From positions 248,001 through 312,000 of the forward strand of contig JAMDHS010000013.1 in the NCBI GenBank assembly GCA_029717555.1: a DNA stretch of 64,000 bases, in the 5' to 3' direction. The notes beneath the pieces are model-generated. The model had not been told where the DNA came from. It made no database searches and saw nothing but the letters and a program-made list of their open reading frames with translations. The stretch comes from Peribolospora baueri. Taxonomy: Eukaryota. The position numbers and the translations under genes were made by a program. Shown one piece after another: positions 35,442 to 61,009 of the stretch (position 1 is the first letter of the stretch; the number at the start of each line of letters is the position of its first letter).

Positions 35442-37423
<1,982 letters not shown>

Positions 37424-41158: not shown

Positions 41159-44100
41159 TTAACGTTCTTCCCTCCCAACTGCATCGCCCGCGCCGACGAC
41201 CTGCCTCGCACCCACACCCACACCGCCTCCGAGGCTCCTTCTCAACCACCGCGCCAACTCGGCGCCCCTTAGCCTCTCCGAGCCCGTCAAGCTGAACTGG
41301 AGCTTGACGTACTCGAGCGGCTCAGCACCCGCGGCGCCAGAGAGAGACGGAGAGGAGGATAGGTCGAGCGGCAGGTTGAGCCCGTTGAGGAGCGAGTCCA
41401 ATTCCGGTCCGATCGCCGGTCCCCCACTCGTCGTCCCGGCACTGGGGTGCGCCGAGACGGAGGACGACGACGACGATGGGCGGCGAGCGTCGGCGAGAAG
41501 GAGCGAGCGCAGAGGAGCGAGGCGGGGAAGACCGAAATTGAGCACATCGTTCTTGTTGGCGTTGGCCGGAGGCTTGCGCTCCGAGGAAGAAGCGGAAGAG
41601 AAAGGGTGCTGTCGGCTGGGGGAGAAGACGGGGATGCGCCCGGCGCCAGACCTCCCGTTCGCGTTGTCGTTCGTCGGGCCGTCGCCGCCAAAGTCGGCTT
41701 GCTGCTCCGGCTGGCGCTTCTGTGCGGGCAAGTGCGACGAAAAAGACGGAGCCCGCGAGGCAAAGTCGGAGGCGCGGACGGTGTCGTCCGAAGAAGCGGA
41801 GGAGGGTGACAGAGGCCCGGGAGAGGGAGACGGGGAAGGAGAGATGACCTTGTTCACAGCCAACGCCCCCTCCTCATCCTTCTTCTCGTCCCTCGTGGGC
41901 GCACAAGAAGGTGCAGCGGGTAGGAGGATGGTGAGCTTGGTCGCCTCAGGCGCCGCACACCTGTCCTGGTCTCTGTCTCCTCGGAGCCGCTGCCGAGACA
42001 TGTCATCGTCGACGTCGACGTCCATCCTTTCTCCGTCCTTCTCCTCGCTCTGCCCGTCCGAACTGCGCCCCCTCTCCACGTCGTCGTCATCACCGAGGCT
42101 GCCACCGGCAAGCCCACCATCGAGCAACTCGACGACCGGCGGACCCGCAATGAACAACAAGGCCGCCGGCTGCGCGCCGTTCTCCTCTTCCCTCGACGAG
42201 CTGCCGCCGCTGCCGCCGACGGGCGCGGAGACGGGGCCGTCAATACTGAGCAGGCTCAGCCCGAGCTCGCGGCTCACGCGGTCCCAATCCACGGGCTCGA
42301 ACGTGCGCGGGATGAGGTCCGTGTTCGTGCTCGGACGAGGCGCGTCCGTGTTGCTGTTGCGAGGGACATAGTATGCCACGGCCTTCCTCGTCTCAGGGGT
42401 GGAGCCCCCTGACGGCCTATTAGCTCCAGAAGGAGCGGACGAAGAGATGTTCGAAGCCGCAGCGGCGTCGGGCCAGTCGATGCTGCAGACGGGCAAGAGG
42501 TCAGCCACGTCACGAGGCACGTCGGTGATGGTGCACGAGGCAAGGGAGGCGGAGGTTTGGTCGCTGGACACCGGAGAGATAGCGAGGTCGCGCTCATCGG
42601 AAAGGTGGGAGGTGGGGTGGAGCGAGGAAGGGTCGCCGGAGAAGGAAGAGGAGGCAGCACGGTCTCGCGAGCGAGAGCGGCGCAAGGTGGTCGAGGAGAG
42701 GACGCGACCGAGGGAGAAGGAGGAGCTGAAAAAAATAAAACAATGTAAAGCCAGTCATGTCAGATATCTACTCAGAGCGACCAAAGCGTCCAAGCGCATA
42801 CACGCGCTCTTGGACCGCTCCAAAACCCCGTCCACCCACCTTTCAGTCCCCCAATCAACTCTGGCAACACCGTCGCTGCCACCGAGCCCTCCGGCCCCAG
42901 CGCGCTGCTGCTGATGTCCGCCAGGCAGTCCGAAGAGAGCGAAGCTAAACAAGATAACCATGAGCGCCACCCCGCCGGCACCCTTGCGAGCTGCCGCGCT
43001 CTCGGACTTTATCGTCGAGGTGCCGTCGCGGTGGTGGTGGGAGTGGTGGGAGGTGGAAGGAGAGGGGGAAGGGTAGGGAGAAGAGCCTAGGAAGGCGCTC
43101 TCCTCCGAGCTGCTCATCCCTCCGGCACCGAGGAAGGAAGGAGCCGAACGAGGCGAGGCGGATGAGGAGGGCATCGCTGCCGTCGCCGCCGAAGAGGAGG
43201 AATGGTCAGGGAAGAGCGATGCGAACACCCCCTTTCCGTTTTCCGCGTCGTCGACGAATGGAGAAGGCGGCGGGAAAGGGATTGAGACCATCGCATCCTC
43301 TGCGCCGGCTCGCATGCCGTCGGCGGGGCGACGGTGTTGCCCGTGCTGCTGTGAACGCGAGTGCGAGTGCGCGTAGCTTGGGGAGGTGCTGGAGGTTTCA
43401 ACGCGAAGGTCGGGAGGCTGCGCGGCCTTGCCAGAGGACGAAGTCGTCGAAGCGGGCGGGGTAATGGAGCCTTCCTCCATTTTGACAGCTCCAGCCGGGG
43501 CTCCGGACCAAGCATAAGCGCCAGGCATGAAAGAAGTTTCAGAAGTGGCGCCAGTGTACGACGAAGACTGACCTGAGGCCGAAGCCGGCGAAGAACGCTG
43601 GGAGCGCAGAGAGGCGAGCTCGACTTGCAAGGCAGCCTCTCGCTGCTTGATGGCGTGCAGCTCGGCACGAAGCGACTCGATCTCGCGCATGTGGGCTTGG
43701 CGAGACGGGGAAGGGGAGGAAGACGTCGCTGTGAGCGAGTCCATCTTCTCTTTCTTCACGTTCGCCGTCGTCGCACCGGCCCCCTGCCTTCCCGCGTCAA
43801 TCGCCTCGCGAACCAAAGACCTCGTTTCCTCCTCCTCCTTCTCCAACCACTTCTCCATCCCCTCGGAACAAGCGTCGAACGCGGCCGCCCAAGCGCGATG
43901 GAAAGCCTTGACCCTGATCTCGAGCTCCTCGAACTGTTCCCTTTTACGTTGTCGACTGAGGAAGGCCGCCGCGCGGTTCTTCACCAGCCGAGCCTCGCGC
44001 TTGGTCAGACCGGAGACGTCCGGGGGAACGAAGAGAGAGCTGTGACGGGCAGAAGTGTCGATGACGGGGAGGCGATTGCCTGAAGAGGTGGAGTTGGTAT

Positions 44101-45076
44101 TCGAGTTAGAGACGCCGGAGGAGGAGGCGGCAGACGGTGATGCGAACGACTCGTTGGCCGAACACGCCTCGACGGAAGCGCTCCCGTCGTACGATGGCAC
44201 CGGCGTCATCGACGGCGCCTTGCGCTTGTTCGACTTTTTAGCGCTCTCGCCGCCCTTGTTGCCAGTGCCTTTGGGCGAAGCTTTCAAGTTAGGTCGACGG
44301 GACGAGGCCGCCGAATCTGTCTCCTCGGACTCGAGGCGCCTTCGCTTCTCCCGAGGGCTCTGGCTGCTGACGGAAGCAGAAGAGGTGGTGTCGTCAGTGA
44401 ATGGCGAGGCGAGACGGCCGATGCGCGGTGCGGAGTCAGATGAGCCTTCGTCCTCATCGTCCTCATCGTCGTCGTCATCGTCCGCGGCTCCCCTGCGACT
44501 GGCATTGCCCGCACCGGCGCGGAAGGAGAAGATGGAGGAAGGTGCAGGAGCGATGTCGGCCATGCTAAGGGAGACGGGATCGCTCTCGCTGCCGTTCGCC
44601 GCGCCGCTCCAGGTAGGGTTGGAGGCGGAGGAGGATGAAGACCAAGGGACGGGTGCGATGGAAGGATCGAGCTGGTGAGGCTCGACATGCTTCAAGCCCG
44701 CGCCCGACACGAGGTCCCACGGCGAAGGCGGAGGGTGGGCGAAGAGATGGGAGTCAGAGGCAGGGTCGAGGCGCATGTCGTCGTATCCCGTCTCCGCTTT
44801 CACAGCAGCGTGGGCGGTCCCGGACGTCGAGCCTGTGCTGGCCCAGTCGGGGCCGGAAGCAGAGCCGGGAGACGCATAGCTGATGGGGTCGTCATAAGCA
44901 AGGCTGAAATGGGTGGAGAAAGAGGAAGAGTCGAAGGATTGGGGTTGGTCGAGGAGGTCGTCGTTGATGAAGGACTGAAAGCTGGAGTTGGCGTCGTTGG
45001 CGCTTGCGAGGCCGCCGGCGTTGAGCTGCGGTGTCGAAGGCCTGGGAGGGGCAGCACCGGGCTGGAAGGAGGCCAT
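41159..45076 (-). CDS. Membrane-tethered bZIP transcription factor (ATF6/CREB3/bZIP28-like architecture)
   Basis: bZIP basic region LTKREARLVKNRAAAFLSRQRKREQFEELE and TM GGVALMVILFSFALFGLPG. One 114-nt intron (GTGGGT 42839..CAG 42726) joins ORF 42755-45076 in frame to ORF 41159-42685. Confidence 0.85.
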
Positions 45077-46100
45077 AAGGGGAAGAGCAAGGCGCGGTTG
45101 CCTGCTTGAGGTGAGGGAGCGTGCCAGTAACTGGAATGGGTGTAGGAGTGGATGGTGGTGGAGGTGGTGAGAGAAGAGCGGCCGTTCCAGCCCTCTCCTT
45201 CTTCCTTCTCCTTTCTTCTCCGACCTTCCGGTCTTCTTCCGAGGCGGGAGTGGGGGGCGGTGCGCTAAGGCACGGATGAAACGTGCTCGTTATCGAGCCA
45301 AGGTGGATGGAGTAAGGCTAGGTAAGAAGGGATGGAAGGTATGGGACGTGGTGGCTGCAGGGCGAGATGTGCGGTGGGTGTTGGGAAGGAAAGGAGGACT
45401 TGGACAAGAGAGGGTCGTCGTCGTTGTCGTCGTCGTCTTGTCGTTGTCGTCGTCGTTCGTTGTCGTCAAGTAGAGCGCGACGTGGAAGTGGAAGTGGACG
45501 ATGGCGTCCAGACGCGGGCGCACGAAACGCAGCCCAGACATGCCGTGCTGCGGCACATAGACCGGCACGTGATGCGCGCAACCCTACCCCCTTTTCCCCT
45601 TCCACGTCGACAGCCGCCGTCACCGTCAAGATGTCTCTTTCCAGAGCCTTCCATTTGCATCCATGCCGATAGCGGCAGACTCCTCTCCGTGGCCTCAGAA
45701 CGATGAACGTGTCCCTTGTCTCTCTTCCCTGCCTTGCTTCCGTGACGAGCCTTCCTCCGTTCTTTTTTTGCTCGCTCTGTGCCGGGTCGGCTTCGAACGC
45801 GGAGAAGAGGCGAGACGAGACGAGACGAGATGACTTGCATGCCGTCCTCGGGGAAAAGGAAAGAAAAAGGAAAGCTAAGTGCTGTACGTACGTACATACG
45901 GGATCGGAAAGGAGTATCGCATTTGCACATATGCTTGCCTTGCTTGGTGACCGACCACCCTCACCAACGGGTTGCGGGAGACAAGGCAGACTGACATGAA
46001 AACCCGGCGATCACGTGCCCATCTGTGCATTTTACTGTCCACCTGTCCACCTTCTTCGATCGAGGACTAAGTGCTCTCCGTGCACAACCACCTCGACGGA

Positions 46101-47970
46101 ATGTCGTCGTCGCCCCTCTGGAGCACCTTTCTCGGTGACTCCTCCTCCGTCAGGACGGCGCGTGCCGCCGCTCTCGCGCTCAGCGTCACCACCACCCTCG
46201 CCGCGTGGCTGCTCTACCGTCAAAGCCAAATAGCTTTTGCGGATCAGAAGACGCAGAGGAAGAAAGCACCGAGTCCAGCGGAGAGCGACAACGTCGAATC
46301 CCTCCGAGAGGCCTTGGACGCTCTCGAGGAGCAGGGGGAGAGGAATGCCTTGACGCTGGATAGGGAGAATGTGATGACGAGGAAGAAGGAGGTGGCCGAC
46401 ACAGGTCGGGTAGTTGGGCTGTTCTGGGATTACGATGTGCGAGACCCCCTCTTTTTCTTTTTCAGTCACCACTTTCCTGTCCTGATTTTCTAACCTCTCG
46501 CAACTGCACGCAGAACTGCGCACCTCCGAAAGGCTCCACGGGCGGACAAGTGGTGGGCAAGCTCCGCCAGATGGCCCAGAGCTACGGTACCATCTCTACC
46601 ATGAAGGCTTACCTCGACATCAACCTCATGGAACAAGGCAAGGATGGCGGCTTGCCCCAGGAGAAGCTCCTTTCCCAGTTGGCTGACTCGGGCGTCAGTC
46701 TGGTCTTTACGCCCAAAAGTGGCCGCAAGAACGTGGCCGATCAGAGAGTGCGCCTGTCGACGACCTTTCTGTGCCCGAGAACGCCTGCCTCACTCCTTCC
46801 TTGCTCTTCCTCCTTTCCTCGACACAGATGATCACCGATCTGATGGCCTTTGCAATCGACAACCCCGCCCCAGCCACGCTCGTAGTCGTCTCCGGCGACC
46901 GCGACTTTTCCTATACCCTCGGCACGCTCCGAAACCGACGGTACGAAATCGTCCTCGTGCTGCCGCCGGTCGGCGCTAACGTTAACGTCAAGCAGCAAGC
47001 CAACAAAGTACTCATGTGGCGTGCAGATGTTCTCGGCATCAGCGGCGGCATCGGCACCCACGCCTTGGAGGAAGAGGCCCCGGCTTTGGCCAACAGCGAC
47101 ATGGCACCAAGCACAAGTTCGTTGGCGTCTCCCAAGAAGAGAGAAAACGCCCCTGAGACGCAAGACACGAGGGCCGATCATAAAACTAAGTTCTTTCCCG
47201 ACGCAGTGTCACCCGCTTCACCCAGCACCCGCACACCAGACGTCTTCGCGCCACTTATCGAAACCCTAAACGAATATTCAAAACGCGGTATCACCCGCGC
47301 TTTCCGTAAACCCATGCTCGCCCAACTCGCGAAGCGCTATCCGTTCGCTGCCTCCTCAACGGGCCTGGGCAAGAACGATTGGATGGGCTACCTGGCTTTG
47401 GCGGAGAGCATCGGTATCATCCAGCAAGGGTCCATGCCGGAAAAGCCAGGATCCGAATGGGTATGGTTCTCCGACGAGCGACATCATCGACAGCAGCAAC
47501 AGCTGCCGCTGCAGCAATCTCCGCTGCCGCAATGGCATCAACAGAAGAAGAGCGTGCAGACGAGCGATCCCGTCACTAAGCCCTCTGGCACCGGCGGAAG
47601 CTCCACCCCTTCGACGCCCTTTTCTTCTCCAATTAAGCGCGGCTCCGACCCGACTGTCCCCGACAACCTTCCTTTCGAGCTTCAACCTTTCCTGCCCCTC
47701 CTCTCCATCCTAGAGGCCCGCCGTCTCGTGGGCGATATTCGCCCGCTTTGCTCCTATGTCGGCGCGCAGCTCGGACAGCTCTCCCTCGCCAAAAGCGGGA
47801 ACCGCAAAGACGTGTACGCCCAAGCGCACACGGACGGGTGGAAGAAATATGCGGAGATCGCCCAGGCGGAGGGTCTGGTTAAGATCGTCGAGACGGACAA
47901 GGAGGGCATATTGGCCGTCAGGTTGAAGAGGAAGTGGGTCGGCGTCGTTCAACCTGCAAATATTGTGTGA
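46101..47970 (+). CDS. NYN-domain (PIN-like, MARF1/DUF537) ribonuclease with N-terminal membrane anchor
   Basis: VGLFWDYD|NCAPP..KAYLD..LADSGVSLVFTPKSGRKNVADQ..MITDLMAFAIDNPAPATLVVVSGDRDFSYTLGTLRNRRYEIVLV; two C-terminal helical repeats (FAPLIETL..WMGYLALAESIGII; FLPLLSIL..WKKYAEIAQAEGLV). Confidence 0.88.
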
Positions 47971-50919: not shown

Positions 50920-52874
50920 ATGTCCACCGCGGCCACTCCAGAAGAGGAAGACGCACCGCACATCACAAAGGGAAAGAGCTCCCGCGCCGCCGTACGCCCC
51001 TTCGACACCGAAGAGGAGTCCTCTTCGAGCGATCACCGCCGCCGCGATGGTCTGCACAAGGGCGACGACAGGGATAGCTCCGATCTAAGCGAGGCTGAAG
51101 ACGGTGAGGGGGAGCAGGAGCAGGAAGCAGGGGCGGATGGGGAACCAGAGGATGAGGATGTGGAAATGGACAATGGTGAGGTAGAGGGTGAGTCGGACGA
51201 CAGCCAGGACTCTCAGGAAGAAGAGGATGCATCGGACGAAGAGGAAGAACAAGACGAGGAGGAGGAGGAAGAGGAAGAGGAAGGGTGAGTTTTGGTCCTT
51301 TTCAGCCCACCCAAGGTTGGTGGCTTAGAGTATATTTGCGTGAACTTTCCCTCTCTCATCCACTATCCCGCGACATTTCCGTACGCACAGAGATGAAGAG
51401 GAGGACGATGACGAAGAAGACGAGCTGGAAGACGAACTAGATGTAAGGGGCGAAGAGGAAGAAGGTGGGCAGCAAGGATTATCCCAGGATGGAACTCCAC
51501 TGAAGGTCACACTCAAGGTCAGCGCTGGAGGTGGTGCTGGAAGCGGAGGGAGAGGTGCGGGGTCCACGGCGGTGAAGGACCGGAAGAAGAAGAAAAGCAA
51601 GAAGGGTATGTGTCAGAAGGGCAAAGCGTCTTGCCTAGCGCGTTCTCAGATTGATTCTTCTCAACGTTATTGCTACCATGTTGTCTTTGCCCATACTAAC
51701 GTAAAAACCGTCGTCGCGTCATGAACCCCACCAATCCAACCCTTGCAGCCAAGTCGTCGGCCAGCTCCACCTCGTCCGATGAATCAGATGGATTCACAGC
51801 CATCGCTTCTCGAAAGACGGCTCGTCAACGCGCAAAGGACAATGAGGACTTGCAGGCCACCTTGCTGGAGTTGCCATTGGGTACGTCCGGTCCTCTGTGA
51901 CCTAAGGTCTGATTGGCTCGCGACGCTCATCTTCTATCCCTGTTTTGTTGTCTTCCGACATTATCCATCTGTTCTTCACCTTTCTTCACCTTCCTCGAAT
52001 TTCTCTTCCCCTGTTCACAGATGACCCCTCGAAAAAGAAACAGCTCACGGAATCGGAGATTGCTCTGAGACGGTCGGAAACTGCCAGGAGGCGGAAGAAC
52101 CAGAGCGACAAGAAACTTGAGGATGACAAGGTCGAGGTGGGTGGGAACCATTCTACGTAAAGTATGTCTCCAGAAGTCAGTCGATCGATCTCATGCTGTC
52201 ATCACCGTCTTGTCGCTTTGAATCACTCGCGTCGCCGAACGCAGACTATTAATCGCCTCCTCAAGAAACAAGTCTCGCGCTCCCGCACAAAAGACAGAGG
52301 CGGCGAGGCGGGAGGGGGAGAAGGCGGTCATGGTTTTGAATTCGCGGAGGCGCACAAACTGTCTAGGGCGGAGGAGAAGGCTCTGCCGGGGGGGTTCTTC
52401 CGATACATCAGCGGGCGGGAGGGCAGCTCTCTGAGTGTGCCCCTGCCCACGGGTTTGGTTTCCGGTGTCGTCGGCGTCGTGGGAGGAGCGGGCGGAGAGG
52501 GGGAGGACACCGTCGTAGCTGCTCCGAGGGAGAAGAGCGAGTACGAGCGACTGTGGGAGGAGACGTTCCCTTCCGTCTCCTCCTCCGCCGTCGGCACGAC
52601 GGCTGTCTCATCGGATTCGATGGACGTGGACGACGTTGGGATGAGAGGGGCTCTCGCCGACGTCAATAACTTGCCCAGGTACCCGCCACCTCGACCGAAG
52701 TGCAGCGTCGCGGGATGCGGGCAGGAGATGAAGTACCGCTCCGTCAAGCTAGCGAAAGCGGTGTCAGCGGCGGAGGCGGCTGGTGCGGCGGACGTGGACA
52801 GAAATCGAGGCGTGAGTGCAGCGGCGGCGGTGGCTTGTTCGATGGAGCACCTCAAGCTACTCGACGCGTCCTAG
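50920..52874 (+). CDS. IES2: INO80 complex subunit B / Ies2 (PAPA-1 domain + HIT-type zinc finger)
   Basis: Acidic N-terminus; RKTARQR..LLELPL|..KKKQLTESEIALRRSETARRRKNQSDKKLEDDKVE|TINRLLKKQ; RYIS; CSVAGC..KYR..ACSMEHLK. Confidence 0.9.
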
Positions 52875-53134: not shown

Positions 53135-54750
53135 TCAACCTCTCCGCGCCTTCTTCCGAGCCTGCCCGACAGCTTTGTCGAACTTCCCCTTCACCCTTGC
53201 CTTCCCGCCCCCTCCAAACGCCTCCTTCTCGTCCCTAGTCCCTCCAGCTGTCTCCCGCGCCCTCTCGAGTGCGGAAGTCTTCCTACCGCTCTTGCGCAGC
53301 ACATCGTACTCGTCTCCACGACGACCATCATCACCACCGCCCGTCTTGCTCCTCTTCTTCGCCCGGCCCCCAGTGCCGCCCTCGGCATCTCGATCGTACC
53401 CCCGAAGAAGGTCTCCGAACTCCTCCTCATACCCACCGCCCATCCTCCCATGTCTTCCCTTGCCGCTCGTAAGACCGGCCCCGCCGAGCGCAACGTCCGC
53501 CTCGTCCCTCTTCCTTCGCTTGGCGTCCTTCTTGGTCATTACCAGACGCGTCATATTCTCCTCCTCGTATTGCGTCATGCGCTCCAGGGCCTTTGCACGT
53601 GACGAGCGCAGGTGAGAGGTCTGACCCAGGCCAGAGGCAGAGATGCTGTGCGGGTCGGAGGAGAACGAGCCTGCTAGGGTCGAGAGGAGGCGGGACGACG
53701 GCGCCGACTCTCGGTCCTTGCGTTTGCCTGCAGATATGACAAGTAAAGCGCAAGACCGAAGAGGGTTAGGGAAGCTCGAAGACCCCCGTGTCTACCCGCG
53801 CGATACATACCTCTCTGAGCATTTTCGTCGTACGGCATAGGCGCTAGTTTCGGCGGGCGGTACACCTCTTCACCAGTAGAAGCGGACGCCTTGCCCATTC
53901 GTCCTTTCCCTGCTCCTCCACTCTCCTTGTCCTCGTCTCCCTTGTCCGTGGCGTTGCGCGCTCGTGAAGGAAGGAGAGCGGCAGGATTGGGCCGGAAGGA
54001 AAGCGGATCTGTAAGGCGGCAATGAGCCATGGGACAAACAGTATCGAACTTGTTGAGTGATCGCTTCACCGGGCACATGGGCAAAGCGTACGCCAAATTG
54101 GGCGGACCAGGAAAACGAAGACTCACCGATCTCCCCCTCCTCCTCTTCCTTCCTTCCACCTCCCAGCCTCTCCCTGGTCTCCTGATCCTCAGCAGCGCGC
54201 ACGAGCTTGTCGACCTGGTAGCGCAGCTTGCTCTCCAGCGGACGAATCTTCTCGAGCATGAGCCTGATCTTCACCAGCTGCGGGACGATCAGGTACTCGC
54301 TGCCCTCCTCATCCTTCCCCCCGGCAGATGAAGGCGGTGGGAGAAGCGTGGCGGAGGAGGAAAGTTGGGAAGGGGATACATCGGGAGGGTGAATCGGTCG
54401 ACCGCGGAGCTTGGAGCCAACGATAAGGAGGAGGTGATGGAGGTAGGAGAGCAAGAGGTGGTTCTTGAGAGAGAGGATGGAGACGCCTTCCGAGTAAAGG
54501 AGGGAATCAGTGTCGCGGAGTCTGTCAAAGAGGAGAATGTGGGCAGAAAACCGAGGGGAATGGTTGCCCAGTTGAGCGACAGACCCTGGTGAAGATAGAG
54601 GCTAAGCGATCACCTCCAATCCACTCACTTCTCCAGCGTGGGTTGGGCGGAGCCGTTGAAATTCTTGAGTTCTGAATGAATGCTCTTGACGAGCTGCAAG
54701 AAAGATCGGACCTCTTCTGGAGATCCTGAAGGTTCGTCGGCGGTGCTCAT
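53135..54750 (-). CDS. LCP5: U3 snoRNP/SSU processome protein Lcp5/neuroguidin (Sas10/Utp3/C1D family)
   Basis: GVSILSLKNHLLLSYLHHL..LVKIRLMLEKIRPLESKLRYQVDKLVRAA..DPLSFRPNPAAL..VYRPPKLAPMPY..MTQYEEENMTRL. Confidence 0.92.
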
Positions 54751-56592: not shown

Positions 56593-59562
56593 TCAATCCT
56601 TGGACCTCAAACCGGCCAAGATCTCCTTGAGCCTCTCATACTCCGGCTCGTCCTCGAAAGAGTCCTTGGTCCGGCCCAAGAAGGCGCGTACGATGCTCCT
56701 CGCCTGGAACTTCCAGTCCTTCAACGCCGGCTCTGTCCGCCCTTCGCCCTGTCCTCCCTCTCCCGCGGACACCGCCACCTCCCTGGGCCCGAGGTTCTCC
56801 AAATACTCCGCCATCTCCTCCACCTCCTGTGCCGCCTTTCTGAACTTCTCTACACTCGTTTCCGCCCCTCCCGCGTCATCCGAGCCCGCTCCACACCGGA
56901 ACGCCTTCAGGTACGCGTCAATCGCCCCGCGGTAATCGCCCCGCCACAGAAGAAGGCGGGCGTAGGCGCGAAAGGTGCGAGGAGAGGAGGCGATGCGGGG
57001 TAGGATGGCCGTCGTGAACAGGCGCTCCACGCGCGGATACAGACCGTGCCCTTCGTTCGGGTTGTGCTCCACCTTGGTCGCCGTCTCGCCCGCGAGCGCG
57101 GACGGCTCTTGCACGGCATCTTCCTCCCTCGACGGAGCCCGAGTGACGGCGTCGACCAACCTTTCCAGAACATCTTCGTCCACGGCCTTTTCGCCTATCT
57201 TGGGCGCCAGAATGTCCACGAGCCTTGCCATGGCCCGACACGCCTCGGAGAGCTCGCCCACGTCGACAGCGACAATCATATAGTTGGTCCAGATGCGCCA
57301 GCTCTCCTGACTGTGTCGGATGCCTTGGCGGAGCGCGTTGAAGGCGTCGCGCTTTCGAGCGTAGGGCACCCCCGAGGCGGTAGGACGCGTCGAGAGCGCA
57401 CCGTGGCTGAGCGACACGGCTGCCTGCTCTTCATCGTCCTCGTCAAGGGCAGGATCATGAACAGACTGGACTTTGTCCGCACCTTCCTCCCCCATGCGCA
57501 AATACACGCTCGCGAGGTTGTTCCAGCTCTCGCCGTCCTCGTCGTCCAAGGCGACGCACCTCCCGAACGCTGTTGCCGCTTCCTCCCAGTCCTCTGCGCG
57601 CATCGCCGCGCAGCCGAGGACGAACCATGAGCGCGTGTAGAGCGGGTTGATGGATAACGCCGTCTTGAGCGGTTCAATAGACTCCGCAAACTCGCCTCGA
57701 GCATAGTGGTATCCGCCCAGAGAGCGCATGGCACGAGAGCTCTGATGATGAGACACCTCCCATGCCGTATGGTAGTGCTTTGGCTCCTTCTCGAGATCAC
57801 CCAACAGACACCACAGCTTGGCCTTTCTGCCGTCGCTCATCCTGGCCTTGCTCCTCTCCTCTGGAGCGCGCGCCCCCGTCCTGGACTCCGCGATGCGCAC
57901 TTCCACCTCCTTCCTCCTCCCTTCGAGCAAATCCCTGACGACCTCGACGCCTTTATCTTCCCTCTCTAGCAACTGCCAACACGCCACCACGTCTTCCCAC
58001 ATCTCCAGGCGCTCGAAGATCTCCAGCGCCGAGCGCACGACCCCGATGCTGAGGTATCGCTTGGCGAGTTCGTGCTGCATCTCCCACCTCGACGGCAGTG
58101 GCATCGAATGGAAGTATCGCAGTCGCTCCTGAAGCGTCGAGTCTGTCGTCGGCATCTGGTCGATGAGCGCCTGCAGCTGCAACGCCGAGCGCTCGACGGT
58201 GCGAGAGCGGTTGGACTCGAGTCGAGAGCGGAGGAGAAGTGCCATCGTGTGCACAGACCAGTTCATCGGGTTCTCTAGGACACGAGCCACAAACGCCATC
58301 ATCTGCTCCGACGTCAGGCCATGTGAGGGGTTCATGTTGCGGATGTTGAGGCAGAGCGCAAGGAGGACGCATTGGTCAAGCGGATGTAACTTGGGTTGGG
58401 AGCCCGGCTGGATGTGCGAGAGCTTGCCATGCGAAGACTCCGGTTTAGAGGTGGTCGTGTACTTGGTATGTTCCAGGAGCGTATCGTCGTTGAGACTGAG
58501 CGTCGTAGGCACCGCCGCGGCTCCTGTCTCTCCCTCCTTTTGACCAACTACCGTATCTGGAGAATCTTGCTTCTCTTTTCCTTCCGACCGTCGCACCACG
58601 TTCTCCTTGGCCCCTTCGTCTTGATCATTCCTCTCTTCCCGCTCCCTACTTTCCGCAAGCAGGACGAGCTGGCTCAGGTCCTTGCTTTGGAACTTGGTCT
58701 TCCTCCCCAGTGCGCCCGTAAGCACGTACTCCAAGCCACTCTGCCGCGCCGCTTCAACAAACAGATCCGCCGCTTCCCGGTCCTGACCGAAGTGGTGAGG
58801 CACGAGTCCTCGTTCGAGGGTGAGCCGAGCGTGAAGATCTGATCGCCAGGATGGAGGGAATGCAGAAATGTCGGAAGAGGAAGAGGACGAGTCGTAGGCA
58901 AGGGAGGAGAGGAGCTTCTGCACGCGAGAAAGAACGTCTTCGGGAACGGGAACGGGCTCGTCAAGAAGATGCTGATGTACCATTGCGGCTCGAAGTCGCC
59001 ACCAGTGAATAGACTCTAGTCGCTGGAAGGGTAGAGCAAAGACGAGTTGGGCAAGGACAAGGAAGGAGGGGTGTTTGGGAAGGTGGTATGCGGGCTCACC
59101 GCCGTATTGCAGACGGCCGAGCGCGGAGGCGTGCACATCATCTTCGGACGTCGAACTCGACGACGACGGGAGATTCAACACGGCGAGCGGTGTGACGTCG
59201 AGATCAGGGCCGGTCCAGTTGGCTTGAACGAAGGCGTGCAGGGCGGCGACGCCGACGGCGAGCATGATCAGCTCGTTTTCGTCGTCGGAGACGAAGCGGG
59301 TAGACTCCCGGACGACAGAGAGGTTTTCAAAATCGAACACTGAAGACGATGGATCGCGACTGGTCTCAGGAAAAGACGCGGAGAAAAGCTCCTTCGCCCA
59401 CCTCGAGGTCAGCGCTTCAGAAAGGTCTCCGTGGACGACCTGTCGAGCAAGTTGGACGGCTGGAGACTGCGCTGCGTCCTTGTCGTCCACGTCGCCATGC
59501 AGGATCCAAGTACCCTCTATCAAACACCATTGTGCCTCGTTCGGCGAGGCTGAGGAGGCCAT
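56593..59562 (-). CDS. EMW1: TPR protein Emw1/TTC27 (intronless)
   Basis: Single ORF: LHAFVQANWTGP, LTGALGRKTKFQSKDLSQLVLLA, LNDDTLLE, NWSVHTMALLLRSRLESNRSRTVERSALQLQAL, SALEIFERLEMWE and TPR repeats. Likely start MASSASP at 59562. Confidence 0.93.
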   Translation of the reverse strand: MASSASPNEAQWCLIEGTWILHGDVDDKDAAQSPAVQLARQVVHGDLSEALTSRWAKELFSASFPETSRDPSSSVFDFENLSVVRESTRFVSDDENELIMLAVGVAALHAFVQANWTGPDLDVTPLAVLNLPSSSSSTSEDDVHASALGRLQYGGEPAYHLPKHPSFLVLAQLVFALPFQRLESIHWWRLRAAMVHQHLLDEPVPVPEDVLSRVQKLLSSLAYDSSSSSSDISAFPPSWRSDLHARLTLERGLVPHHFGQDREAADLFVEAARQSGLEYVLTGALGRKTKFQSKDLSQLVLLAESREREERNDQDEGAKENVVRRSEGKEKQDSPDTVVGQKEGETGAAAVPTTLSLNDDTLLEHTKYTTTSKPESSHGKLSHIQPGSQPKLHPLDQCVLLALCLNIRNMNPSHGLTSEQMMAFVARVLENPMNWSVHTMALLLRSRLESNRSRTVERSALQLQALIDQMPTTDSTLQERLRYFHSMPLPSRWEMQHELAKRYLSIGVVRSALEIFERLEMWEDVVACWQLLEREDKGVEVVRDLLEGRRKEVEVRIAESRTGARAPEERSKARMSDGRKAKLWCLLGDLEKEPKHYHTAWEVSHHQSSRAMRSLGGYHYARGEFAESIEPLKTALSINPLYTRSWFVLGCAAMRAEDWEEAATAFGRCVALDDEDGESWNNLASVYLRMGEEGADKVQSVHDPALDEDDEEQAAVSLSHGALSTRPTASGVPYARKRDAFNALRQGIRHSQESWRIWTNYMIVAVDVGELSEACRAMARLVDILAPKIGEKAVDEDVLERLVDAVTRAPSREEDAVQEPSALAGETATKVEHNPNEGHGLYPRVERLFTTAILPRIASSPRTFRAYARLLLWRGDYRGAIDAYLKAFRCGAGSDDAGGAETSVEKFRKAAQEVEEMAEYLENLGPREVAVSAGEGGQGEGRTEPALKDWKFQARSIVRAFLGRTKDSFEDEPEYERLKEILAGLRSKD

Positions 59563-59817
59563 AATGGACGGCGGAAAACGAGGGCTGAGTATGTACAAGA
59601 GGGAAGCAACTCTTCTCTTTCCAAGCCAATCCTTCCCGCGTCGCGTTGCACTTCGGCCTTGCCGCAGCACAATTATCAGTATAAAGCTGCGGTATGCGCG
59701 TAATTCCCACGCTGCGACCGCTTTCTGGCGAAGGGAATTTTCACTCCTTACAAATGTCTTGGTCGAGCCATCACCATCCACGAACTCCAACCTCAACAAC
59801 GACCACCCGCCGTCAAA

Positions 59818-61009
59818 ATGGTAGGTTCTGTCGGGCAAAAGAAGGAAGAAGGCAGATGCCAGACGTACTATGATGAAGATAAGGATTGCTGTCGACTCAC
59901 GTCGCTACACATCGTTGCATCTTCTGTCTGTGCTCTCCTACTCCCTCCCGCCCATCTTCGCCTCGCGCCCCCTGCCGGCTTTCCGTCTTCTTCTCCTCGG
60001 CCCCCATAGCCCAAGGCCAAGTCCGGTTCCAGCAAGAAGCCCGCGCCCGCCCCCTACTCCAAGGGCAAGGCTGCGCCCAAGACGCCTAAGAACCCTCTCT
60101 TCGAGGCCAAGCCCCGCAGCTTCAGCGTCGGTGAGTATCGTCACTGGTGTTGCGCAACAAGTTAAAGATGGAGCGAGTTTGGAGTAATGTTGCATGCTAA
60201 CTCGCTGAACGTACACCCTCTTAGGCCAGGACCTCCAGCCCGCTCGTGACCTGACCCGCTTCGTCAAGTGGCCGGAGTACGTTCGCCTCCAGCGCGCTCG
60301 GGTGATCATCAACCAGCGCCTCAAGGTCCCTCCCCCGATCGCCCAGTTCTCCCACACCCTTGACAAGAACACGGCCACTCAGCTTTTCCGTCTCGTTAAC
60401 AAGTACCGCCCTGAGTCGAAGCAGGAGAAGAAGGAGCGTCTGGCCAAGCAGGCTCAGGAGGTGGCCGATGGCAAGAAGGAGGACCCGAAGAAGGATGGCA
60501 AGAAGCCCCTCTTCGTCAAGTCCGGCCTTAACCACGTCGTCGCCCTCGTCGAGGCCAAGAAGGCCAACCTCGTCGTCATCGCCGACGACGTCGACCCCAT
60601 CGAGCTCGTCATTGCTCTCCCCGCCCTTTGCCGCAAGATGGGCGTGCCCTACTGCATCGTCAAAGGCAAGGCTCGTCTCGGCGCTGTCGTCCACCGCAAG
60701 ACCTCGTCCTGCCTTGCTGTCCAGGACGTGCGTTCCGAGGACCAGAAGGAGCTTTCTACCCTCGTCTCTGCTGTCAAGGCAAACTACAACGACAAGTACG
60801 AGGAGCACCGCCGCCACTGGGGTGGTGGTGTCCGTGGGCAGAAGAGCCAGCGTAAGTTTTCACTCTCCCTGGATGAATTGAGGAAAATGTACGGACCAGA
60901 CCGAGAATTGCTGACCTTTGTCCTCTATTTCCCTGGCTTCTGTTCTGCAGAGATGCTCCGCAAGAGGGCGAAGGCTACCGGTCAAGCTCTCAAGGATGTC
61001 GCGCTCTGA
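59818..61009 (+). CDS. RPL8: 60S ribosomal protein eL8 (L7a/L8)
   Basis: ATG|intron|[87 protein letters not shown]. Confidence 0.97.

Follow-up and report, generated by a model that had tools for sequence, protein, structure and literature searches.

We identified a gene for a putative membrane-tethered transcription factor of the basic leucine zipper (bZIP) type in a 64,000-nt stretch of the genome of Peribolospora baueri, a relative of the smuts (GenBank assembly GCA_029717555.1, contig JAMDHS010000013.1, positions 248,001 to 312,000 of the forward strand; this whole stretch is called the window, and positions are counted from its first letter). The gene has two exons on the minus strand (45076..41159) and encodes a product of 1267 amino acids (aa). 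The analysis establishes the gene model, the bZIP, a single conserved hydrophobic segment that follows the bZIP and is preceded by a dibasic pair, and, within the Ustilaginomycotina, tail blocks that are conserved in order. The reading that we favour, and to which we give slightly better than even chances, is that the product is a type II membrane-tethered bZIP of a basidiomycete-wide family, released by intramembrane proteolysis without site-1 protease (S1P), and probably linked to stress of the endoplasmic reticulum (ER). By analogy, it would work like ATF6 and plant bZIP28; membership of the ATF6 family proper is not part of the claim. The textbook fungal unfolded-protein response (UPR) has one branch, Ire1-Hac1; what the window protein and its relatives would add, judged from their sequences, is a fungal, predicted S1P-independent, membrane-tethered bZIP family with a tail that belongs to no known family.

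Gene structure and family

Two same-frame open reading frames (ORFs) on the minus strand, 45289..42755 and 42754..41159, abut at a stop codon, and the start ATG lies at 45076. The original prediction, which was made from this DNA alone, had proposed that an in-frame intron of 114 nt joins the two into one gene, and the splice signals, base composition, relatives and tail comparison (see below) all bear this out. The 5′ site reads AG/GTGGGT at 42839 (the slash marks the splice point), a CTGAC branch-like box is present, and the 3′ site, TTTTTTTCAG, ends at 42726; GC content is 0.49 in the intron and 0.65 in the exons. GC content at third codon positions (GC3) is 0.78 for exon 2 in the proposed frame and 0.73 for exon 1, similar to other genes of the window. 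Many unspliced ORF calls of relatives stop at the homologous codon, just past '...G-S/N-T/A-E/D-E', which is one codon beyond the end of exon 1 in the window ('WGTE'), and spliced relatives annotated by NCBI (1011-1163 aa) go on with 'x-L/V-G-R/K-V-L/I', as the window sequence does after the splice; thus the intron position, and apparently its phase too, is shared. Four of these NCBI-annotated relatives contain both the exon-1 and the exon-2 parts. A plus-strand open frame of 402 codons (41163-42371) runs antisense to exon 2, and its GC3 is also 0.78, since the two frames have their third positions in common; to us it is a mere shadow ORF, of the kind expected in GC-rich coding DNA.

Of 7,997 candidates scored in a search with aa 330-745, 346 proteins reached E <= 0.001; counts out of 120 in this report refer to the best 120 of these 346. 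Among those 120, all named matches are from Basidiomycota, except for two plant-labelled records (Adiantum and Cichorium) that we take to be fungal DNA in plant assemblies. The Ustilaginomycotina genera include Exobasidium, Microstroma, Ceraceosorus, Violaceomyces, Ustilago, Sporisorium, Malassezia, and Tilletia, and the Agaricomycotina genera include Serpula, Schizophyllum, Psilocybe, Tulasnella, and others. Even the best match shares just 46-47% identity with 40% of the query, which means that the lineage of the window is not closely represented. Members are annotated solely as hypothetical or "bZIP domain-containing"; we found no paper describing the family in open-access full text, and the Ustilago maydis member, UMAG_10519, is named in the main text of no open-access paper that we found. 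This bZIP family, spanning Ustilaginomycotina and Agaricomycotina, is so far uncharacterised. The UMAG_10519 gene measures 2020 bp for 672 codons and is therefore without intron. Agaricomycete members have the transmembrane (TM) segment and tail in one exon, or an intron elsewhere; when the Serpula protein is compared by tblastn with several Agaricomycete loci (L039-L043, L055, and others), the match is interrupted near its aa 292/293, where the TM segment is encoded, which points to an intron located differently from that of the window gene.

The bZIP region and the membrane segment

The acidic N-terminus, the bZIP, and the single TM segment named in the original prediction are all present, and every element that it listed lies where it was placed. 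Pfam bZIP_1 matches at aa 358-393 (E 7.3e-7; 29.6 bits, cut-off 27.6), covering only profile positions 4-39 of 64, beside the basic region. The basic region reads NRAAAFLSR and is invariant in 18 of 18 aligned members; the 18-member alignment has 48 invariant positions, nearly all of them in the block that runs from the pre-basic extension to the basic region. In Ustilaginomycotina, Pfam matches just the first 35-36 profile positions and a second heptad stretch follows after an insert, whereas the zipper is contiguous in Agaricomycete and Cantharellales members. The nearest solved bZIP is CREB, at an E-value of only 0.12. The motif at aa 31-43 is a candidate activation motif, the activation function being predicted from its sequence.

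The TM segment was judged by hydropathy only. No other stretch of the 1267-aa protein reaches a Kyte-Doolittle (KD) mean of 2.0; values for the segment, taken over 17-19 residues, are 2.0-2.35 in this protein and the relatives closest to it. Among the best 120 relatives, 75 have a 19-residue stretch with KD of at least 1.6 after the bZIP, and one has such a stretch before it; among the 45 below 1.6, several are predictions that have been truncated, or show the segment in a weaker form. A [KR][KR] pair lies at most 12 residues before the segment in 30 of 31 distinct TM regions of the family (those caught by the search pattern), and [KR]-hydrophobic-G occurs at most 25 residues after it in 23 of them. 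Across orders the segment hardly varies, and apart from the basic region no stretch is better conserved; it has a conserved serine in its middle and "FGLP" at its presumed luminal end; in Agaricomycete members a proline is found in mid-segment. This conservation exceeds what would be expected for a mere anchor, which suggests that the segment is recognised by a component of the membrane.

The C-terminal tail

The tail after the TM segment is 547 aa long, rich in S, A, G, L, and P, with one N-x-S/T sequon and four cysteines. Nine long relatives' tails align with it on colinear blocks (Table 1), in the order juxtamembrane block, "P-S/T-S-H-L-S..D-L", "D-V/I-x-D-L-L", helix, three hydrophobic strands, and C-terminal helix; the C-terminal block is at the very end of the window tail, the same as in relatives. 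Of the 16 long tails, 11 have the motif P[ST]SHLS, as do 32 of the best 120 relatives, short-tailed Ustilago proteins among them. Pairwise BLASTP matches are weak and colinear (E 7e-4, 0.43, and 0.41 against a Microstroma protein; E 0.027 against the relative P0016).

Because standard searches are blind to the exon-2 similarity, we used a block-chain test, in which position-specific scoring matrix (PSSM) blocks built from the nine relatives were chained colinearly along the exon-2 product. The score was 122.7, which none of 1000 composition-preserving shuffles reached (mean 79.0, standard deviation 7.3, maximum 110.1; z 6.0), and the reversed exon-2 sequence scored 73.7. A word-indexed search with the exon-2 product at longer lengths gave no match, nor did the tail profile against a 5.8-billion collection at E <= 1. 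Against PDB sequences, the tail profile gave noise only (T4-lysozyme and uteroglobin, best E 0.022, over an Ala-rich helix), and the full-length family profile matched only a designed coiled coil (E 0.73). Pfam has no match in the tail of the window protein or of eight relatives. An Atlas search with the exon-2 product gave no usable match, and one with the bZIP-TM part found only fungal bZIP clusters (scores 0.82-0.89). An alignment of the exon-2 product to full-length relatives was misaligned and was discarded.

AlphaFold2 (AF2) was run on the window tail and on one relative's tail, each with a 10-row alignment. The mean predicted local distance difference test score (pLDDT) was 42.3 for the window tail and 43.6 for the relative's tail, with 433 of 521 and 270 of 348 residues, respectively, below 50. 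Secondary structure appears only at the conserved blocks, as three or four strands and a C-terminal helix (pLDDT about 50-65). The three short hydrophobic motifs picked out in the original prediction coincide, at this low confidence, with the strands E188-191, E261-268, and E471-478, on conserved blocks. Foldseek of the relative's tail model against PDB returned two rows with E > 6, which are meaningless at such model confidence. The picture that the models suggest is of a mostly disordered tail with a few hydrophobic islands.

Tails differ among subgroups. In Ustilaginaceae members (P0015-P0048) the hydrophobic segment is weak and rich in Ala and Gly, and the tail is no longer than about 100 aa; "GQPSSHLSDDDLL" is retained in it, as are two dibasic sites located 12-31 residues past the segment. 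The Agaricomycete branch (P0091-P0120, L005-L080) has its own conserved tail, with "RKLEF", "GKIRVRIH", and an almost invariant end, "RRVRIALKSMP..GGEGGEWEVQ-V/I-C"; this end reaches 93% identity in contigs of soil and root metagenomes. An hhalign comparison of Ustilaginomycotina and Agaricomycete tails gave a probability of 0.2, i.e., no detectable similarity, each tail being conserved within its own group. Of 43 distinct Ustilaginomycotina tails, 33 have dibasic (Kex2-type) sites among their first 80 residues, against a chance level of about half (a rough estimate, not computed), and we keep this as a lead only.

Table 1. Features of the bZIP gene and its upstream region, listed along the minus strand from the promoter to the end of exon 2 (positions in the window).
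Feature	Position	Strand	Remarks
UPR-element-like site 1 (CGACGTGGAAG)	45599..45609	-	523-533 bp upstream of ATG, gene's sense orientation; exact match to Cib1 motif
UPR-element-like site 2 (CGACGTGGAAG)	45478..45488	+	402-412 bp upstream of ATG, opposite orientation
Exon 1	42840..45076	-	745 full codons and the first 2 bases of codon 746; its N-terminus can be aligned to those of relatives
N-terminal acidic/hydrophobic motif, aa 31-43	44948..44986	-	matches family consensus "FDSFI..D" near N-terminus
Run of 12 D/E, aa 199-210	44447..44482	-	from the sequence
Invariant pre-basic extension and basic region, aa 337-382	43931..44068	-	41 of 46 positions identical in 18 of 18 aligned members
Second coiled-coil-like heptad stretch, aa 463-493	43598..43690	-	kept in family consensus and seen in relatives; an insert lies between it and the basic region
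Dibasic pair RK, aa 697-698	42983..42988	-	4 residues before TM segment
TM segment, aa 703-720	42917..42970	-	strongly hydrophobic segment aa 702-720, KD mean 2.35 over 17 residues
Intron	42726..42839	-	114 nt, phase 2, GT-AG; in-frame TGA at 42757-42755
Exon 2	41159..42725	-	last base of codon 746, 521 codons, and stop; codes for most of the presumed luminal tail
Juxtamembrane block "SLGRVL", aa 750-755	42698..42715	-	present in 12 of 16 distinct tails of at least 60 aa
Block "PTSHLS..DL"	42584..42616	-	most widely kept tail motif
Block "DVADLLPVCSID"	42476..42511	-	with preceding block, BLASTP against Microstroma protein P0074 E 7e-4
Helix-plus-strand block, exon-2 aa 145-160	42245..42292	-	AF2 H147-154, E157-160; aligns with relatives' "DY.AFAKDLG.SL"
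Hydrophobic strand block "ALLFIAG", exon-2 aa 187-195	42140..42166	-	AF2 E188-191; aligns with relatives' "GFLVLG"
Strand block "EATKLTILLPAAP", exon-2 aa 260-272	41909..41947	-	PSSM block score 22.7; AF2 E261-268
C-terminal strand and helix block, exon-2 aa 471-498	41231..41314	-	PSSM block score 28.7; BLASTP against relative P0016 E 0.027; AF2 E471-478, H487-498

Release from the membrane

In the reading that we favour, the activation motif and the bZIP would face the cytosol and the tail would lie in the ER lumen; the protein would be held in the ER until cleavage within the membrane freed it for the nucleus. The likeliest proteases would be the basidiomycete site-2 protease (S2P), Stp1, or signal peptide peptidase. 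There would be no canonical S1P step, the tail being first removed or unmasked by another luminal event. ER or secretory stress would be the likeliest signal; the tail, predicted to be disordered with hydrophobic islands, resembles the BiP-held region of plant bZIP28.

The original prediction had instead placed a site-1 cut at RVLS. LGRVLSS is indeed encoded, with its arginine (R753) at 42706-42704 and RVLS about 33 residues after the TM segment, but it does not hold up as a conserved S1P site. The position of the arginine is K or R in eight of the 12 tails with the juxtamembrane block, and Q, G, S, and Q in the other four. RVLS is also outside the consensus Rx[LIT][KL], a motif described as too short to be predictive (PMC9237531), and fits only a loose R-x-hydrophobic-x pattern; the sole strict match in the tail is RSLL (aa 1152), within a non-conserved insert. 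The protease itself is reported to be absent from basidiomycete yeasts: Cryptococcus and Xanthophyllomyces, by the account in PMC8549280, have no S1P homolog and use the S2P homolog Stp1, and ascomycetes are given there as lacking both. As a whole, then, the proposal of an ATF6/bZIP28-like protein is partly supported: what had been observed is confirmed and the type II membrane-anchored layout is conserved in the family, so that the kind of protein was rightly named, whereas the S1P step is wrong or unsupported and fails by the yardstick that the prediction set for itself, conservation of RVLS.

The first cut of plant bZIP28 is reported to be independent of S1P (PMC9237531), and a tail-less bZIP28 to require S2P and not S1P (PMC3935173); hence the proposed release mechanism survives without S1P. 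The latter source also describes BiP binding to disordered regions of the bZIP28 tail. In Phaffia, deletion of stp1 on top of sre1 is reported to add sensitivity to dithiothreitol (DTT) that is independent of Sre1; the authors posit that Stp1 has transcription factors bound to membranes, still unidentified, among its substrates (PMC12732919). In U. maydis, Spp1 is described as a UPR-induced signal peptide peptidase that is required for virulence and whose substrates are given as unknown (PMC6490947). The 17 large ORFs of the window that were scanned include no protease gene.

Comparison with known systems

By analogy, plant bZIP28 is the closest functional counterpart. Like the window protein, bZIP28 and bZIP17 are type II bZIPs with paired basic residues just before the TM segment, and they are described as having a luminal tail of more than 300 aa with disordered BiP-binding regions (PMC3935173), the window tail also being long and predicted to be disordered. 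The window protein differs in that it has no RRIL site, and our searches yielded no sequence similarity beyond the basic region. Plants have both S1P and S2P.

The layout predicted for the window protein is also that of ATF6 (alpha and beta): the activation region and the bZIP face the cytosol, a single TM segment follows, and several hundred residues of tail lie in the lumen. The presumed logic of ER retention and release by intramembrane cleavage would be shared as well. In contrast to ATF6, the window family has no conserved S1P site and its basic region is NxxAAxxSR rather than NxxSAxxSR; in the window protein, the zipper is split by an insert and the tail is mostly disordered and of low complexity. 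The strand-like motifs near the ATF6 C-terminus may have a pattern similar to those of the window tail, and since the tails of Ustilaginomycotina and Agaricomycotina are themselves not detectably alike, a short likeness to vertebrate ATF6 could be due to chance.

NxxSAxxSR is given as the signature of one ancient bZIP cluster that unites animal OASIS-ATF6, fungal HAC1, and the plant proto-B group, and the same survey reports finding no ATF6-specific domains in fungal bZIPs (PMC4736632). NRAAAFLSR has alanine at the serine position of this signature, a one-residue departure that is weak evidence either way. The CREB3/OASIS proteins are likewise membrane-tethered bZIPs cut by regulated intramembrane proteolysis, with shorter luminal tails; OASIS is described as having a conserved extension N-terminal to the basic region (PMC4736632), as the invariant aa 337-357 of the window protein are, whereas the NKxSAxxSR signature of OASIS is absent from the window protein.

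Two fungal systems are also relevant. Sre1, cut by Stp1 in species without an S1P homolog, is the only known S2P-cut membrane-bound transcription factor in basidiomycetes according to PMC8549280; unlike the window protein, a bZIP with one TM segment, Sre1 is a bHLH-zipper protein with two TM segments and both ends in the cytosol. Hac1 (Cib1 in U. maydis) is a UPR bZIP, and the window promoter has two exact copies of the Cib1 target motif; Hac1/Cib1 has no TM segment and depends on unconventional splicing by Ire1, whereas the window protein has a TM segment and its gene a conventional GT-AG intron. In U. maydis, UMAG_10519 exists beside Cib1 as a distinct protein of the window family.

Links to the unfolded-protein response

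The links to ER stress are indirect throughout. The target motif reported for U. maydis Cib1 (Hac1) is T/CGACGTGGAAG (PMC6490947). YGACGTGGAAG has exactly two matches in the 64-kb window, both of them upstream of the bZIP gene (0.12 expected; two matches in 2 of 100 shuffles). A divergent NYN-domain gene shares this intergenic region, so that assigning the sites to the bZIP gene is an inference; both sites are nearer to the bZIP gene.

Other repeated elements were observed in the same region. Three GACGTGG cores (45345, 45479, and 45602) lie in a 265-bp part of the promoter (45345-45609), and the whole window has 23 GACGTGG against 11.4 expected, a count reached in 0 of 100 shuffles. Two CACGTG boxes are near the promoter, at about 45570 and about 46015, and a run of GAC/GACAAC-like triplet repeats (45425-45470) lies 5′ of the gene, between its ATG and the pair of UPR-element-like sites.

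There is also a broader hypothesis, which we regard as possible but on the whole doubtful: Basidiomycota might have a second ER-to-nucleus pathway beside Ire1-Hac1, in which a bZIP of this family is released by Stp1 or signal peptide peptidase, with no S1P involved. The bZIP would then be the Sre1-independent Stp1 substrate postulated for Phaffia and could be a candidate substrate of U. maydis Spp1, its gene would itself, in the lineage of the window, be a UPR target through the two elements, and it might share ancestry with ATF6, OASIS, and plant proto-B, having been lost in Hac1-only fungi.

The family would matter in several ways. The bZIP of smuts, Malassezia, Exobasidium, and mushrooms is a concrete candidate for a second UPR branch, in lineages that are reported to keep S2P, and it would address both the Sre1-independent DTT sensitivity of Phaffia stp1 mutants (PMC12732919) and the substrates of U. 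maydis Spp1 (PMC6490947). Another question that it touches is whether the ATF6/CREB3/bZIP28 layout goes back to the ancestor of eukaryotes or evolved repeatedly, and it would show how a membrane-tethered factor could operate where S1P is missing. UMAG_10519 is a genetically tractable member, in U. maydis.

Evidence against and alternative explanations

Several results weigh against a released, ER-stress-linked membrane bZIP. The hydrophobic segment is weak in Ustilaginaceae (KD 1.3-1.9 over 19 residues) and likewise marginal in Malassezia. The helix-breaking motifs described for TM segments of S2P substrates (NP, NxxP, PxxP, and GxxN; PMC9237531) are all absent from the segment, in which S, G, and a terminal GLP are present. 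For the tail, a profile of relatives (hmmsearch) did not score the exon-2 product above 1000 shuffles, and phmmer with the exon-2 product had 0 matches among 1.84 billion representatives. The UPR-element pair is not a family feature: YGACGTGG was found six times in 165,423 bases up to 3 kb upstream of the bZIP match in 80 metagenome loci, with no enrichment compared to the rest of the loci, the loci compared being distant relatives of the Agaricomycete type. UMAG_10519 is not induced by tunicamycin in wild type, where S1 Table of PMC6490947 gives normalised means of 68.5 untreated and 75.4 with tunicamycin (log2 fold change 0.13, p 0.30). On the side of a UPR link, UMAG_10519 is expressed, and in the cib1 deletion the means are 87.5 untreated and 172.1 with tunicamycin, a doubling; the comparison of wild type with the cib1 deletion, both with tunicamycin, is given as a log2 fold change of 1.19 (p 1.6e-41; PMC6490947). 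Constitutive expression of UMAG_10519 is as a post-translationally controlled sensor would show.

Alternatively, the protein may be membrane-bound and never released by proteolysis, being either a resident bZIP of the ER or nuclear envelope that acts in place or one whose activity is set by splicing, retention of the intron yielding a short-tailed isoform; we consider this unlikely. It would fit with the intron at the same codon between TM segment and tail in relatives, with the in-frame stop of the retained intron, which would leave a stub of about 25 residues and 28 read-through codons, and with membrane-bound bZIPs described as acting at the nuclear envelope (PMC12652670). The splicing variant is weakened by the fact that a stop is present in most retained introns, so the intron of the window is not special, and by the different or missing introns of the Agaricomycete members and UMAG_10519.

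Somewhat less likely still is a strict ATF6 orthologue, an ancestral sensor with a homologous luminal domain that is cut by S1P at RVLS and then by S2P. The same domain order, the spacing of RVLS from the membrane and its fit to the loose site-1 pattern, the three conserved strand-like hydrophobic blocks, and the common cluster of OASIS-ATF6, HAC1, and proto-B (PMC4736632) would all agree with orthology. But the basic residue at the proposed cut is not constant, the only strict site-1 match is the RSLL of the non-conserved insert, and S1P is reported absent from basidiomycete yeasts (PMC8549280); moreover, the basic region is NRAAAFLSR and not NxxSAxxSR, fungal bZIPs are reported without ATF6-specific domains (PMC4736632), the nearest solved bZIP, CREB, is only a marginal match, and with tails of the two subphyla not detectably alike, a likeness of eight residues to a vertebrate protein may be chance.

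It is very improbable that the hydrophobic segment is no membrane anchor and the protein a soluble nuclear bZIP with a long disordered C-terminus: the marginal segments of Ustilaginaceae and Malassezia, with KD of 1.3-1.8 over 19 residues, and the 45 of 120 relatives below KD 1.6 (some of them truncated predictions), would suit this explanation, which is opposed by the scores of the window protein and its closest relatives, the conserved dibasic flank, and conservation of the segment second only to that of the basic region. That the gene model is wrong, with two separate genes or a pseudogene, can be set aside almost entirely, since the exon-2 similarity, although invisible to HMMER, takes the form of colinear family blocks with the C-terminal block at the very end, the GC3 of exon 2 is 0.78 in frame, and four annotated relatives have both parts.

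Neighbouring genes

The neighbouring ORFs of the window are ordinary eukaryotic housekeeping genes. They include an RNA cap guanine-N2 methyltransferase, the NYN-domain protein, PAPA-1, Sas10/Utp3, a TPR protein, and L7Ae, and their coordinates are 35442-36200, 46687-47970, 52161-52874, 53870-54601, 56593-59904, and 60209-61009.

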